Assembly (NCBI GenBank): GCA_965221595.1
Contig: OZ244900.1
Span: forward strand, 3,576,982-3,640,981
Direction: 5' to 3'
Origin: Vicinamibacterales bacterium
GTDB lineage: Bacteria > Acidobacteriota > Vicinamibacteria > Vicinamibacterales > UBA8438
DNA length: 64,000 bases
Part shown: piece by piece, positions 18,016 through 55,994 of the stretch
Position numbering within the stretch: the first letter of the stretch is position 1
Layout: each line of letters opens with the position of its first letter
Translations under genes and position numbers: made by a program
The notes under the pieces: generated by a model
The model's database searches: none
What the model was told of the DNA's origin: nothing
Seen by the model: the letters and a program-made list of their open reading frames with translations, nothing else

Positions 18016-18846
18016 TCACGCACCGAGCGCGTGAAAGGCGATCCACCAGCCGAGAGCGCCGACGAGCACGCCCGATAGACTGTCGATCGCATAGTGGTAC
18101 CGGCCGAGCACCGTCCCGACGGCGATGCCGGCCGCAATGCCGAGCAGTGCCGCGCCGGCCGCCGGCGAGACGGATCCGACCGCCAGCCCCACCGCCGTGG
18201 ACGCCGCGGCGTGGCCGCTCGGCAGCGTGTTCACCTGCACGCTCAGGCGGCGCAGGACGGCCGCGTTGAGCCGGCGCAGCAGCGGGTAGGGCGAGCAGAG
18301 CGGTCCACGCATCGTCAGCGCCCTCGGCGGCCGGGTTTGAATCCACGGCAGCATGCCGTAGCAGGCGAACGACGCAACCAGCGCCGCCGTCCAGAAATCG
18401 TCAGCGCGGGACCGCTGTCCAAACGCCACGAGCAGGCCGAACCCGGCCGGGACCAGCGGGTAGGCCAGCAGGTAGGCCAGCTCGAAGCCGGAGCAGACGA
18501 TGCGCGGGGTGCGTGCCACGAGACGGCCCAGCCGGCCGCCTCCGAACAGCCACGTGTCGACGGCCAGCAGGCGCCGCTCGACCGCCGGCATCGGCCGGCG
18601 GTAGAAGAGGCCGCAGAGCCAATAGCCCTGCAGCAGGTAGACGGCGGGCAACCACTCGCGCAGGAGCTCCAGGCTCGGCGACGGCCGCAGTTGCGCGAGC
18701 ATGAGCACGAGCGCGATGCAGACCAGACCAACCAGCACCACCCGCCGCCTGGCGGCGACGGCCAGCGGCTGGACGCGCGAGAGCACGACCAGGTAGGCGA
18801 AAAAGCCGCAGACCACCCACTCGCTCGTCCAGAGTTCGAGCTGCAT
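18016..18846 (-). CDS. PAP2-family membrane phosphatase
   Basis: 276 aa and polytopic. PAP2 motifs PSGH and GRYHYAIDSLSG (SR-x5-H-x3-D-like) are present. Confidence 0.8.
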   Translation of the reverse strand: MQLELWTSEWVVCGFFAYLVVLSRVQPLAVAARRRVVLVGLVCIALVLMLAQLRPSPSLELLREWLPAVYLLQGYWLCGLFYRRPMPAVERRLLAVDTWLFGGGRLGRLVARTPRIVCSGFELAYLLAYPLVPAGFGLLVAFGQRSRADDFWTAALVASFACYGMLPWIQTRPPRALTMRGPLCSPYPLLRRLNAAVLRRLSVQVNTLPSGHAAASTAVGLAVGSVSPAAGAALLGIAAGIAVGTVLGRYHYAIDSLSGVLVGALGWWIAFHALGA

Positions 18847-19028
18847 TCGCGTGCGCCTCGTCGGATGCGCAACGGTATTCAGCGCCGGCTCGCGGTGTCA
18901 ACCGGCGACGAGGCGACTGCTGCCATGCCCGTCCCGGGCCGCACAGCACCGGCGCGCAGGAAGGCACCAGCCGCGCGCAGATGCGACGACAGGTCAGTCG
19001 CCCGGCGGGCACATCGGCAGGGAGAAAC

Positions 19029-19043
19029 TGAGATTCGATCTCA
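19029..19043. promoter_or_regulatory. palindromic operator candidate O1: TGAGAT-tcga-TCTCA
   Basis: Perfect inverted repeat TGAGA-N5-TCTCA, centred about 52 bp upstream of the predicted TSS of the porin operon. Confidence 0.45.
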
Positions 19044-19051
19044 ATCCGTTC

Positions 19052-19081
19052 TTGACCGACCGATCCGGTCGGACATATAGT
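19052..19081 (+). promoter_or_regulatory. sigma70-like promoter candidate for the porin/FMN/ApbE operon
   Basis: TTGACC (19052-57), an 18-nt spacer, then TATAGT (19076-81). The spacer itself is a hairpin (gaccgaccg-atc-cggtcggac). Confidence 0.45.
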
Positions 19082-19094
19082 TCCCCGTTGGAGT

Positions 19095-19109
19095 TGAGAT
19101 CAAGTCTCA
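19095..19109. promoter_or_regulatory. palindromic operator candidate O2: TGAGAT-caag-TCTCA
   Basis: Same motif as O1, with centres 66 bp apart. It lies just downstream of the predicted TSS. A further TCTCA occurs at 19117-21. Confidence 0.45.
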
Positions 19110-19123
19110 ATACTGGTCTCACC

Positions 19124-19162
19124 AAAGAAAAGGCCCGCCGGTGGTGACGCACCGGACGGGCC
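19124..19162 (-). terminator. rho-independent terminator (minus strand)
   Basis: Minus-strand sequence GGCCCGTCCGGTG-cgtcac-CACCGGCGGGCC forms 12 bp with one bulge, followed by TTTTCTTTGG. Confidence 0.6.
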
Positions 19163-19222
19163 GGCTGAACGCCCGGCCGCCGCACGCTGACTGCCTGCGC
19201 CAGGCGCCAGACGCGTTCAACG
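19124..19222 (-). ncRNA. candidate ~100-nt sRNA, antisense to the predicted 5' leader of the porin operon
   Basis: Minus-strand promoter: TTGCGC (19257-19252), 17 nt, TACAAT (19234-19229). Minus-strand intrinsic terminator at 19162-19124. No ORF lies between them. Confidence 0.35.
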
Positions 19223-19283
19223 CTCCTCATTGTAGGAGTCGACGTCATGGCGCGCAACACCGGGCCATCACCCGGGAGGGGTC

Positions 19284-20654
19284 ATGCCGTCGATGTCCCG
19301 TTACGCGCTGTTCGTCTTCATGGTGCCCGTTCTCGCCAGCGCCGCGCCTGTCGGAGCCGTGCCGCAGGACGGTGGTTCGGGTCCCGCCGAGTCGGGGCCG
19401 GCCGCCGGGCTGGCACCGGTCGCCGAGGGCAGCGGGGAATCGGAATCGGCCCTGGCACCGCCGCCGACGGGCGGTGAGCAGGCGACTGACATCGAGGAAC
19501 TCGAGCGGCGCATCGAGCTGCTCGCCGAGGAGGTCGAGCGGCTGCGCAGCGGCGAGCCCGAAATCGACCTGACCGACGACCGGACCCGCGCGCTCGGCCT
19601 CGCCCCGTCGGCGGCCGCCGCCTACCGCTCCGGCACCGGCGTGTCGATCGCCGGCTACGGTGAGATGCTCTATGAGAACTTTGCGTCGGGCACGACCTCC
19701 CGATTCGACTACCTGAGAGCCATCCTCTACGCAGGCTATCGCTTCAACGACAAGTTCCTCTTCAACTCCGAGATCGAGGTCGAGCATGCCAAAGAGATCT
19801 TCATGGAGTTCGCCTACGTCGACTACCTCGCCACCGACAACTTCGGCCTCCGCGCCGGCCTGCTCATGATGCCCATGGGACTGGTCAACGAGTTCCACGA
19901 GCCGACCGTCTTCATGGGCGCCGAGCGACCGGTCACCGAGCAGGTCATCATCCCGACGACCTGGCGCGAGAACGGCGGCGGCGTCTATTACGCCGGCGAC
20001 ACCGTGGCCGTCCGTGCCTACGTCGTCAACGGACTCGACGGCGCCAGGTTCTCCGCGAGCGGCGTGCGCGGCGGGCGCCAGAAGGGCGGCCAAGCCAAGG
20101 CTACCGACATGGCCTTCACCGGCCGCGTCGACATCACCCCCACCCCGGGCGTCTTCGTCGGCGCCAGCTTCTACACGGGCGGCTCCGGCCAGGGCGAGAT
20201 TGTCGTCGACGAGATCCCGTACGGCATCCGCACCTCCATCTTCGACGTCCACGCCCAGGCCCAGGTCCGTGGCTTCGACATCCGCGGCCTTTTCGCGCAG
20301 GCCCACCTGGCCGACACCGCGCGCCTCAATCAGTTCCTCGGCCTGACCGGCTCGAGCGGCGTCGGCGAGACGCTGCGCGGCGGTTACGTGCAGTTCGGCT
20401 ACGACGTTCTCTCGCAGGTCGATGCCGCCGGCGTCGGTCTCTCCCCCTACATCCGCTACGAGCGGGTCGACACACAGGCCGCCGTCGTTGCCGGCTTCAC
20501 CCGCAGCCCGTCGCAGAACAACGCCTACACGACCTTCGGCGTCGAACTCAAGCCGATCCCGAACATCGCCGTCAAGATCGACTACATGTGGGTCGACAAC
20601 GCCGTCGAGAGCGGCGTCGACCAGTTCAACGTCAACGTCGGCTACGCATTCTAG
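19284..20654 (+). CDS. outer-membrane porin-like beta-barrel with an N-terminal coiled-coil segment
   Basis: 456 aa with a GGGAGGGG SD and a signal peptide. It has the coiled segment TDIEELERRIELLAEEVERLRS and alternating beta-strand sequence ending ...FNVNVGYAF. Confidence 0.7.
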   Translation: MPSMSRYALFVFMVPVLASAAPVGAVPQDGGSGPAESGPAAGLAPVAEGSGESESALAPPPTGGEQATDIEELERRIELLAEEVERLRSGEPEIDLTDDRTRALGLAPSAAAAYRSGTGVSIAGYGEMLYENFASGTTSRFDYLRAILYAGYRFNDKFLFNSEIEVEHAKEIFMEFAYVDYLATDNFGLRAGLLMMPMGLVNEFHEPTVFMGAERPVTEQVIIPTTWRENGGGVYYAGDTVAVRAYVVNGLDGARFSASGVRGGRQKGGQAKATDMAFTGRVDITPTPGVFVGASFYTGGSGQGEIVVDEIPYGIRTSIFDVHAQAQVRGFDIRGLFAQAHLADTARLNQFLGLTGSSGVGETLRGGYVQFGYDVLSQVDAAGVGLSPYIRYERVDTQAAVVAGFTRSPSQNNAYTTFGVELKPIPNIAVKIDYMWVDNAVESGVDQFNVNVGYAF

Positions 20655-21732: not shown

Positions 21733-22742
21733 AGGCGGTCGCCGCGGTCGCCAGCGTGTTCTGCCTTGCCGCGTTCGCGCAGCCGGCCGCTCCCGTGCGC
21801 GTCGAGCGCACGGTCTTCCTTATGGGCACCGCGGCCACCCTGGTCGCCGAGGCTTTCGACCGCGCAACCGGACTCGAGTACCTGGAGCGGATGGTGCGCA
21901 TCATGGAAGCCACCGAGGCGGAGCTCAGCACCTGGCGGGACGACACCGGCCTGAGCCGGCTGAACCGCCAGCCGCTCGGCGTGCCCCGTGCGGTGTCGCC
22001 GTCCGTGTGCGGCCTGCTCGACCGCCTCGCGGCGTGGCAGCAGGCTACCGCCGGCGCCTTCGATCCGGCCGTGGGGCGCCTCGTAGAAGCGTGGGGACTG
22101 CGCGCGATCGGCCGCCGCCCCGGCACCGCGGCACTCGCGAGCGCTAGGGCGCGCACCGGCCTGCAGCACCTGACGATCGATGCCGCCGCGTGCACGGTTG
22201 TCCGGCGCGCCGACGTCACGCTCGACGCCGGCGCATTCGGCAAGGGCGAGGCGCTCGACCGCGTGCGCGACGGCCTGGGCGGCCGGCGCGGCGCCTGGCT
22301 CATCGATTTCGGCGGACAGGTAGCGGTCGCGGGCGAACGGTCCGCCGGCGCCTGGCCGGTGGCCATTGCACACCCGGAGCGGCGCGCGGTGCCCGTCGCC
22401 GAGCTGCGGCTCGCCGCGGGCTCGCTGGCCACCAGCGGCGGCTCGGAGCGGAACCTCACGCTCGACGGCGGTGAGGGCATCGGCCACGTCCTCGATCCGC
22501 GCACCGGCGCGCCGGTCGGTCGACGCGGCTCGGTCGTGGTCTGGCATCGGGACGCCTTCGCGGCCGACGTCCTGTCCACGGCGCTCCACGTGATGGGACC
22601 CGACGGCGGGCTGCCCTGGGCCGCAGAGCGCGGCATCGCGGCCTGCTTCGTGCTGCCGGGCGCTGCGCCCGACGAGGTTGCGTTCCGGGCGACGCCGGCC
22701 TTCGAGAGACGCTTCGCGTTGCCGGCACCGGCGGGGCGATAG
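21729..22742 (+). CDS. apbE: FAD:protein FMN transferase (ApbE family)
   Basis: MKAVAAVASVFCLAAFAQ... then RTVFLMGT...STWRDDTGLSRLN...FDPAVG...LDAGAFGKGEALD...TSGGSER are typical of ApbE. The start overlaps the upstream stop as ATGA. Confidence 0.9.
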   Translation: MKAVAAVASVFCLAAFAQPAAPVRVERTVFLMGTAATLVAEAFDRATGLEYLERMVRIMEATEAELSTWRDDTGLSRLNRQPLGVPRAVSPSVCGLLDRLAAWQQATAGAFDPAVGRLVEAWGLRAIGRRPGTAALASARARTGLQHLTIDAAACTVVRRADVTLDAGAFGKGEALDRVRDGLGGRRGAWLIDFGGQVAVAGERSAGAWPVAIAHPERRAVPVAELRLAAGSLATSGGSERNLTLDGGEGIGHVLDPRTGAPVGRRGSVVVWHRDAFAADVLSTALHVMGPDGGLPWAAERGIAACFVLPGAAPDEVAFRATPAFERRFALPAPAGR

Positions 22743-32633: not shown

Positions 32634-32667
32634 TGATATTGCGTCTCAGTTACAGAAACGCTAGGAT
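32634..32667 (+). promoter_or_regulatory. bfd promoter candidate with an overlapping TGATAT-tgcg-TCTCA box (Fur-box-like)
   Basis: The box spans 32634-32648. The promoter is TTGCGT (32639-44), 17 nt, TAGGAT (32662-67). ATG 32677 follows without an SD. Confidence 0.4.
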
Positions 32668-33371: not shown

Positions 33372-33494
33372 TGACTCCTCCTTCGCTGTCCCGCGGAATA
33401 CCGCGTACTCTCGACGCTAGCACGCCGGCGGGGCCCGGAGGTGAGACTGAGACTCGGTCGCAGCCGAAAGTTCGGGCGCCGCACGTCGGACACC

Positions 33495-55461: not shown

Positions 55462-55491
55462 TTGACAGTCTCGCGGCGGCTGCACTAAGGT
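55462..55491 (+). promoter_or_regulatory. promoter candidate of the his leader/operon
   Basis: TTGACA (55462-67), 18 nt, TAAGGT (55486-91). Confidence 0.5.
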
Positions 55492-55501
55492 ACGCGGCAG
55501 C

Positions 55502-55570
55502 ATGCGGTGCCCAGACCACCATTCGGATCATCATCGGCCGCGACATGGCGGGCACAGGTGGTGCGCGTGA
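55502..55570 (+). CDS. hisL: candidate his-operon leader peptide (22 codons, 6 His)
   Basis: MRCPDHHSDHHRPRHGGHRWCA*. It starts 10 nt after the -10 box and ends 40 nt before an intrinsic terminator that precedes hisI. Confidence 0.45.
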   Translation: MRCPDHHSDHHRPRHGGHRWCA

Positions 55571-55609
55571 GCTGAGGCGAGAGAATCGGGATTGTTGGCG
55601 CACCACACG

Positions 55610-55640
55610 GCCTCGCCGAACATCCGGCGAGGCTTTTTTT
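55610..55640 (+). terminator. rho-independent terminator/attenuator upstream of hisI
   Basis: GCCTCGCC-gaacatcc-GGCGAGGC (8 bp) is followed by TTTTTTT. It lies 21 nt before ATG 55662. Confidence 0.75.
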
Positions 55641-55661
55641 GTTGCGCGCGGAGACCACGCG

Positions 55662-55994
55662 ATGAACTTTTCGAAACTCGACGGGCTGATTCCAGCGGTC
55701 ATCCAGGACGACGAGACCAACGAGGTGTTGATGGTGGGCTTCATGAACCAGCAGGCACTAGACCGTACCACCGCCTCGGGGTTCGCCACGTTCTTCAGCC
55801 GCACCCGCAACACGCTCTGGACGAAGGGCGAGACCTCGGGCAACCGACTGCAGGTGATACGCATCCTGACCGACTGCGACGACGACACGGTGCTGGTGCG
55901 CGTCAAGCGCCTCGGGGAGGGCAACGTCTGCCACACGGGGACGCGCTCCTGCTTCGTCCGCGATCTCGATGCCGCCGCGGTGAGCGTGTCATGA
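55662..55994 (+). CDS. hisI: phosphoribosyl-AMP cyclohydrolase
   Basis: 110 aa: [25 protein letters not shown]...TKGETSGN...DCDDDTVLV...CHTGTRSCF. There is no fused HisE domain. Confidence 0.9.

Follow-up and report, generated by a model that had tools for sequence, protein, structure and literature searches.

The 64-kb window analysed here, a stretch of the genome of a Vicinamibacterales bacterium (contig OZ244900.1), carries on its minus strand between positions 19257 and 19124 a promoter, two stem-loops and an intrinsic terminator that together appear to specify a small RNA (sRNA) of about 100 nt, antisense to the leader of an operon that begins with a porin-like gene. It is quite probable, judging from these elements and their conservation, that a structured RNA is made from the minus strand; the fuller statement, that it is a new cis-antisense sRNA controlling the operon it overlaps, is one that we favour with moderate confidence. 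An initial annotation of the window had proposed such an independent transcript, and this is still the best-supported reading in view of the conservation of the promoter, the covariation of both stem-loops, the strand asymmetry of the pairing and the terminator. The sRNA would form a new family of the Vicinamibacterales; the type of regulator is already known and the mechanism is not a new one.

A promoter and an intrinsic terminator on the minus strand

The predicted sRNA promoter, TTGCGC-17 nt-TACAAT (19257–19229, minus strand), has its −35 element at 19252–19257 and its −10 element at 19229–19234, where the initial annotation had placed them, and this −35/−10 pattern occurs once in the window against 0.05 occurrences expected. 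Among 36 aligned relatives TTGC of the −35 element is invariant, as are T1, A2 and T6 of the −10 element, which otherwise takes the forms TACAAT, TAGAAT, TAACAT, TAAGAT and TATATT, and the spacer of 17–18 nt varies freely in sequence; invariant hexamer positions around a variable spacer are the signature of a sigma-70-type promoter. At the sequence level the candidate thus has a promoter of its own opposite the target strand, as cis-antisense RNAs do. From this promoter we infer transcription starting at a site (transcription start site, TSS) near 19222, the 5′ foot of a long irregular stem-loop (SL1, 19164–19221, minus strand) that was defined by the minimum free energy (MFE) fold from RNAfold and by alignment to a covariance model (CM), and in which a base helix, GUUGAACGC/GCGUUCAGC, is followed by inner helices.

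SL1 is followed by a GC hairpin (SL2, 19132–19162, minus strand), seen in both sequence and fold, whose arms GGCCCGUCCGGUG (19162–19150) and CACCGGCGGGCC (19143–19132) enclose the loop CGUCAC (19149–19144). With a stem of 12 bp (11 G-C), a single bulged U and a loop of 6 nt, the hairpin is typical of an intrinsic terminator, and so is the U-tract UUUUCUUU (19131–19124), which starts at the first base 3′ of the stem and belongs to a U-rich tail, UUUUCUUUGG (19122–19131, minus strand), that would place the 3′ end near 19124. When both strands of the window, which has a G+C content of 70%, were scanned for T-rich sites (at least six T in 8 nt), only 10 were found, the tail at 19131 among them, and the hairpin adjacent to this site was the strongest of the 10 (about −29 kcal/mol including a small flanking helix); the combination of hairpin and U-tract at 19131 exceeds chance. 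The hairpin and T-tract annotated at 19162–19124 are thus present and form the strongest terminator candidate of the window, and the observation that the window has only two strong intrinsic terminators holds.

The initial annotation had also stated that no open reading frame (ORF) fits between promoter and terminator and that no minus-strand gene lies upstream. A minus-strand ORF (18994–19260) is open across the region but begins upstream of the predicted TSS, and close relatives differ by 1-nt indels within SL2 and between SL1 and SL2; as these indels break the frame, a coding function is excluded and a small-protein reading of the region was ruled out. The upstream side is occupied by the plus-strand porin-like operon, as had been noted.

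Conservation and covariation among relatives

For comparison we used 80 related Vicinamibacterales loci that had been retrieved via the porin homologue. The sRNA module was found upstream of the porin homologue in 38 loci by nhmmer and in 37 of the 80 by a calibrated minus-strand CM, R1, which was built from a hand-annotated seed and CM realignment. R1 matches the window over the whole sRNA (19124–19228, minus strand, 83.8 bits, E 1.6e-16) and gives 37 full-length minus-strand matches at 67–102 bits, compared with plus-strand scores of 18–34 bits; neither the window nor any of the 80 loci yielded a second copy (best other match 18 bits, E 0.12). Identity of the sRNA to the window sequence falls to 52–60% in other clades with the fold retained. 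In an alignment of 31 intergenic regions the blocks that are kept are the SL2 hairpin, the SL1 base helix and the motifs ATTsTA and GCGCAA, and a weakly conserved stretch, with an insert of about 65 nt in several clades, follows the operon promoter and its boxes (described below).

The initial annotation had recommended a search of relatives for conserved structure and a comparison with Rfam. The first of these returned the 37 loci, in which the structure covaries. In the CM alignment of the 37 sequences 88.6% of cells form standard pairs, a figure that drops to 30–44% when partners are slid by 1–3 columns; two-sided changes were seen at 15 of 31 pairs (9.7 ± 1.5 in shuffled alignments, with 1 of 500 reaching the observed number) and the covariation score was 0.215 versus 0.152 after shuffling (0 of 500). 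Most of this signal comes from the SL1 base helix and SL2: helix 1 of SL1 is 91.6% paired with 5 of its 11 pairs changed on both sides, and SL2 is 96.8% paired with 5 of 13 pairs so changed. The inner helices of SL1 are less supported (68–71% paired). RNAalifold applied to plain MAFFT alignments recovered SL2 only, because register shifts and indels misalign SL1. The locus is therefore non-coding with a conserved secondary structure, which is what is expected of a cis-antisense RNA.

The structure can also be assigned to a strand. The MFE of the segment from the TSS to the end of SL2, a measure that needs no alignment, was lower for the minus strand in 36 of 36 sequences (mean −8.1 kcal/mol), and against dinucleotide shuffles the mean z was −3.85 for the minus and −1.96 for the plus strand, the minus strand being better in 36 of 37. 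Cells with G-U, which pair on the minus strand only, number 116 versus 30 with A-C, which pair on the plus strand only, and for SL2 without gaps the counts are 24 and 4. This asymmetry points to the minus strand as the source of the structured RNA.

The sRNA matches no described family in Rfam. No gathering-level match to Rfam 15 was obtained across the whole window, and a search of 18800–19400 at E values up to 10 gave two chance-level matches, neither of which overlaps the sRNA. A metagenome scan with CGTTCRGCNGGCCCGYCYGGTG for copies unlinked to a porin gene gave 21 matches, all of them chance occurrences in coding DNA of GC-rich organisms; none fits the CM and none lies near a porin gene. 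No paper naming both Vicinamibacter and an sRNA was found in the literature.

The predicted target operon and its promoter region

The promoter of the porin-like operon, TTGACC-18-TATAGT (19052–19081, plus strand), was detected by the consensus scan with 10 of 12 positions matching, and its hexamers are invariant in 31 aligned loci and widespread among the 80. Its predicted TSS near 19088 gives a 5′ untranslated region (UTR) of about 196 nt (19088–19283), and the leader would therefore contain the complement of the whole sRNA, which would match about nt +36 to +135 of the predicted operon mRNA with perfect complementarity. No nearer plus-strand promoter was seen for the operon, and the predicted overlap rests on TTGACC-18-TATAGT. 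The sRNA promoter is located 27–55 nt upstream of the porin start codon and is convergent with that of the operon.

Two operator-like palindromes of the form TGAGA-N5-TCTCA flank the operon promoter, box 1 (TGAGATTCGATCTCA) at 19029–19043 and box 2 (TGAGATCAAGTCTCA) at 19095–19109, about +8 to +22 of the operon transcript. Both are invariant in the 31-region alignment and are kept across the Vicinamibacterales. The only other near-copies in the window, with one mismatch each, are at 32634–32648, where the box overlaps the −35 element of a bfd gene (Fer2_BFD, 2.2e-11), and at 33448–33462, upstream of the bacterioferritin gene adjoining bfd. Since bfd is a textbook target of Fur repression, the boxes probably serve as operators of the Fur family in the Vicinamibacterales lineage, and from this single association we infer a link between the operon and iron. 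The spacer of the operon promoter itself contains a nearly invariant palindrome, CCGACCG-N4-CGGTCGG (19056–19072 in the window); a palindrome between −35 and −10 elements is unusual and may be a second operator.

The first gene of the operon (19284–20654, plus strand, from the ORF list) encodes a protein of 456 amino acids, for brevity the porin, which is a putative outer-membrane beta-barrel. It has no match in Pfam, NCBIfam or PDB, a search of 5.8 billion proteins supplied no name or domain, and its family of more than 2,000 relatives is without annotation. An AlphaFold2 model of low confidence (pLDDT, the predicted local distance difference test score, 48.8), too weak for a fold search, predicts 18 beta strands, 16 with five residues or more, besides a signal helix and a coiled coil, and the protein ends in YAF; on this model an outer-membrane barrel is plausible. 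The genes that follow encode an FMN_bind protein, a cytochrome-b-like membrane protein and ApbE, and the operon ends at 22742 (Pfam: ApbE 1.5e-54; FMN_bind a weak match). This combination points to a redox module of extracytoplasmic flavoproteins, which might be a ferric reductase or an iron-uptake system.

The other strong terminator of the window, GCCUCGCCG-AACAUC-CGGCGAGGC-UUUUUUUGUU (55601–55640, plus strand), has the second-best hairpin of the 10 T-rich sites and follows an ORF of 22 codons with six histidines (MRCPDHHSDHHRPRHGGHRWCA, ATG at 55503). The region 55463–55700 resembles a histidine leader-peptide attenuator; the ORF after the terminator looks hisI-like by eye, and a Pfam scan of its first 33 residues gave no match.

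Points against a cis-antisense sRNA and alternative explanations

Several points weigh against the cis-antisense sRNA as proposed. Its −35 element matches the consensus at 3 of 6 positions, and the scan of the window for consensus promoters and terminators, which works with fixed criteria, listed neither the sRNA promoter nor the SL2 terminator, owing to this −35 element and to the bulge in the stem. Both ends of the RNA, the TSS and the 3′ end, are predictions from sequence. The linkage of sRNA and porin gene holds by construction, because every locus was retrieved via a porin homologue, and the alignment used for covariation had been fitted to the model, which tilts its numbers towards structure. 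The assignment of the boxes to Fur rests on a single near-match associated with bfd. With 54 nt between the end of the complementarity and the Shine-Dalgarno sequence, a direct block of the ribosome site by the sRNA is unlikely.

The variation of the terminator among relatives is a further difficulty. The tail of SL2 is U-rich in about one-third of relatives and CU-rich in the rest (for example CAUCUCUCUUU), so termination at SL2 is uncertain in the clades with a CU-rich tail, several of which have an extra hairpin-containing insert of about 65 nt before box 2. In these insert-bearing clades the RNA may be longer, at about 170 nt. The insert is carried between SL2 and box 2 by L010–L031, L018–L022, L042 and other loci (for example L023, 2603–2664), and adds to the minus strand, downstream of SL2, a third hairpin (CGACGCC...GGCGUC) and the conserved motif CCCGCAGCAG.

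The explanation that ranks second, and which we consider unlikely though it deserves attention, is that the RNA is the 5′ leader of a minus-strand operon encoding a membrane protein of 465 amino acids, PAP2 and a glyoxalase-like protein, with SL2 as the regulated terminator of an attenuator or riboswitch; read-through would express the minus-strand genes, and a repressor bound to both boxes could form a roadblock. Of the 80 loci, 30 have the gene for this multi-pass membrane protein in divergent orientation to the porin gene, with its start about 275 nt from the porin ATG. The protein has no match in Pfam or PDB among its representatives in the relatives, and a 'MATE-like' label for it was unsupported. 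Two observations on its gene weigh against an independent sRNA: it lies downstream on the same strand in 28 of the 37 sRNA-bearing loci, and in the sRNA-bearing loci a convincing sigma-70-like minus-strand promoter of its own was not found between SL2 and its start. Most of the other sRNA-bearing loci have a PAP2 or glyoxalase-like gene downstream, which would also fit a leader.

The position of the module in other loci argues in the opposite direction. The sRNA is kept in L015 and L050, which have a plus-strand upstream neighbour and no minus-strand gene following the module, and in L025, where more than 1.1 kb separates it from the nearest minus-strand ORF. Conversely, L037, L040 and L041 have the membrane gene and lack both the sRNA and its promoter motif, so the membrane gene must have another promoter there. 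A riboswitch or attenuator always lies upstream of, and co-oriented with, the gene it regulates, and the sRNA does not; the leader reading is therefore weakened, and the distribution of the two elements indicates that the membrane gene is independent of the sRNA block. In sRNA-less loci with a readable porin start, L034 and L040, the porin ORF begins 12–20 nt past box 2, and thus promoter, SL1 and SL2 behave as a self-contained insertion into a formerly short leader.

The initial annotation had offered a version of this explanation, in which the terminator controls a leader of the PAP2 gene 280 nt downstream. In close relatives the membrane gene intervenes and abuts PAP2 (in L006 it stops at 1329 and PAP2 starts at 1322). 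About 1.3 kb is missing from the window (18901–19012 compared with 1329–2726 of L006), so that the membrane gene is deleted except for a remnant of its first 17 or so codons (18962–19012, minus strand, identified by comparison with relatives), and it is because of this deletion that PAP2 lies so near to the sRNA. PAP2 moreover has a promoter-like sequence of its own, TTGACA-18-TACCGT (18901–18872, minus strand), about 45 nt before its start codon, which is conserved in close relatives and there overlaps the 3′ end of the membrane gene. Together with the loci that have either the sRNA or the membrane gene alone, this leaves the PAP2 version weakened.

The terminator itself gives a mixed picture. 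In many clades the tail makes SL2 a weak terminator, whereas the window and its close clade have a strong terminator of canonical form; how good the U-tract is differs by clade and bears no relation to the presence of a downstream gene. A 7-bp alternative pairing that could serve as an antiterminator, CCGGGCG/CGUCCGG, is present in the window sequence but by inspection is not maintained across clades, where the G/A variation instead covaries with the SL1 base helix (pair 16–72). A conserved antiterminator is not supported. A conserved unpaired core and an Rfam match are also lacking for a leader of this kind.

It is improbable that the conserved structure belongs instead to a plus-strand cis-regulatory leader (a riboswitch, a thermosensor or a protein-binding site), with the minus-strand promoter and terminator as coincidences. 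The plus-strand transcript does carry the complement of SL1 and SL2, and its MFE z is also negative. A plus-strand hairpin, CYCC-AUUSUA-GGRG, which in the window reads CUCC-UCAUUGUA-GGAG (19223–19240), encloses the −10 element of the sRNA; other clades have CCCC/GGGG in place of its CUCC/GGAG stem, the U-G wobbles being compatible with the plus strand, and the operon mRNA may have a local structure of its own here. For SL1 and SL2, on the other hand, folding is better on the minus strand in all 36 sequences and in 36 of 37 after control for composition, and G-U cells outnumber A-C cells by about 4:1. The invariance of TTGC...TAnnnT around a variable spacer is the pattern of a promoter, a U or CU tail follows the hairpin 3′ on the minus strand only, and Rfam has no match on either strand. 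As a separate observation, in some clades the complement of the −35 element, GCAACC, is able to pair with GGUUGC beside the porin Shine-Dalgarno sequence.

Least tenable is a DNA-level or passive role, with the 13-bp inverted repeat of SL2 as an operator, or as a terminator that insulates against stray antisense transcription, and no functional RNA: the conservation of SL2 is high for a mere terminator (GGTG/CACC and CCCG are invariant or nearly so) and it adjoins a densely regulated promoter with two boxes and a palindromic spacer, but a DNA palindrome should deviate symmetrically and SL2 does not (24 G-U versus 4 A-C cells), SL1 covaries without any palindromic DNA logic, and a dedicated conserved promoter feeds the hairpin.

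Proposed mechanism and significance

We propose that the cis-antisense sRNA would work as follows. Transcription would start near 19222 from the sigma-70-type promoter, and the RNA would fold into SL1 and SL2 and end near 19124. When a repressor keeps the operon promoter off, the antisense promoter would be free to fire, and the sRNA could pair over about 100 nt with leaky operon transcripts, leading to cleavage by a double-strand-specific RNase or to inactivation by other means. Once the operon is de-repressed, polymerases crossing the antisense promoter would stop sRNA synthesis by interference, and the reverse may also hold. At SL2 antisense transcription would be halted short of the operon promoter and its boxes. 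The outcome would be a sharper on/off switching of the operon.

Three further ideas are more speculative than the leader explanation, and even jointly we give them little weight. In the first, the facing promoters of the sRNA and of the operon, the latter flanked by its boxes, could exclude each other and so act as a toggle that renders the expression of an iron-acquisition or flavin redox operon bistable. Another possibility is that released sRNA might act in trans, through its conserved loops or through pairing of a CU-rich tail with purine-rich Shine-Dalgarno sequences. Lastly, a ligand sensed by SL1 might control whether transcription reads through into the divergent operon of the membrane protein.

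Acidobacteriota rank among the most abundant bacteria of soils, and we know of almost no work on their RNA regulators. The analysis provides an sRNA candidate for which there are 37 instances and a calibrated covariance model, and whose strand is clearly assigned and target operon defined. It also provides a probable Fur-type operator for the lineage, TGAGA-N5-TCTCA, linked to an uncharacterized operon of barrel, FMN-binding, cytochrome-b-like and ApbE proteins that may serve reductive iron uptake. If the proposal is true, the locus would be a clean natural case in which an antisense module with convergent promoters has entered a short leader that already existed, and for which the sRNA-less relatives are built-in controls; if the toggle or trans-acting idea were true, it would be the first described riboregulator of metal homeostasis in Acidobacteriota.

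Comparison with known systems

MicF of Enterobacteria is an sRNA of about 90 nt with a Rho-independent terminator, divergent from the regulatory region that it shares with the porin gene ompC; it does not overlap ompC and acts in trans on ompF through imperfect pairing. The sRNA described here is similar in size, terminator and porin neighbourhood, and matched no Rfam family. Nor does it resemble the Fur-repressed trans-acting sRNAs RyhB, PrrF and FsrA, which have a box on their own promoter: no box is found near 19229–19257, and those at 19029 and 19095 lie downstream of the sRNA terminator, 120–200 nt from the sRNA promoter.

Three cis-antisense RNAs provide closer parallels in arrangement, and the sRNA is not a homologue of any of them (RnaG, MtlS or IsrR). 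RnaG of Shigella flexneri has its own convergent promoter, overlaps the icsA leader and acts by interference and by pairing, the latter creating an intrinsic terminator on the nascent icsA mRNA (PMC2879508). As with RnaG/icsA, the predicted sRNA promoter is convergent with that of a gene for an outer-membrane protein, here a putative one, and the RNA would overlap the leader of this gene. RnaG is about 450 nt long (PMC2879508), compared with about 100 nt for the sRNA; the two come from different phyla and are unrelated by sequence or by Rfam family, and since no U-tract lies downstream of the plus-strand copy of the hairpin, there is no evident sign of antisense-induced attenuation here.

The level of MtlS, a short cis-antisense RNA of mtlA in Vibrio cholerae, is set mainly by opposing transcription of its target (PMC6597380). 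The two RNAs are unrelated in sequence. MtlS is transcribed from a promoter within the mtlA ORF and covers the ribosome-binding region, whereas the sRNA promoter is in the predicted UTR and the pairing of the sRNA would end about 54 nt before the Shine-Dalgarno sequence. Like MtlS, the sRNA would be a short cis-antisense RNA at the 5′ region of its target, and the interference logic of MtlS is the same as that proposed here.

IsrR of Synechocystis is antisense to isiA, a Fur-controlled iron-stress gene, and has been proposed to set a threshold or delay by co-degradation (PMC2758717, PMC8635728). IsrR lies within the isiA coding region, in contrast to the leader position of the sRNA, and the iron link of the porin-like operon would follow from its boxes and their near-copy at bfd. 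As in IsrR/isiA, an antisense RNA would thus be transcribed opposite a gene that is putatively regulated by iron.

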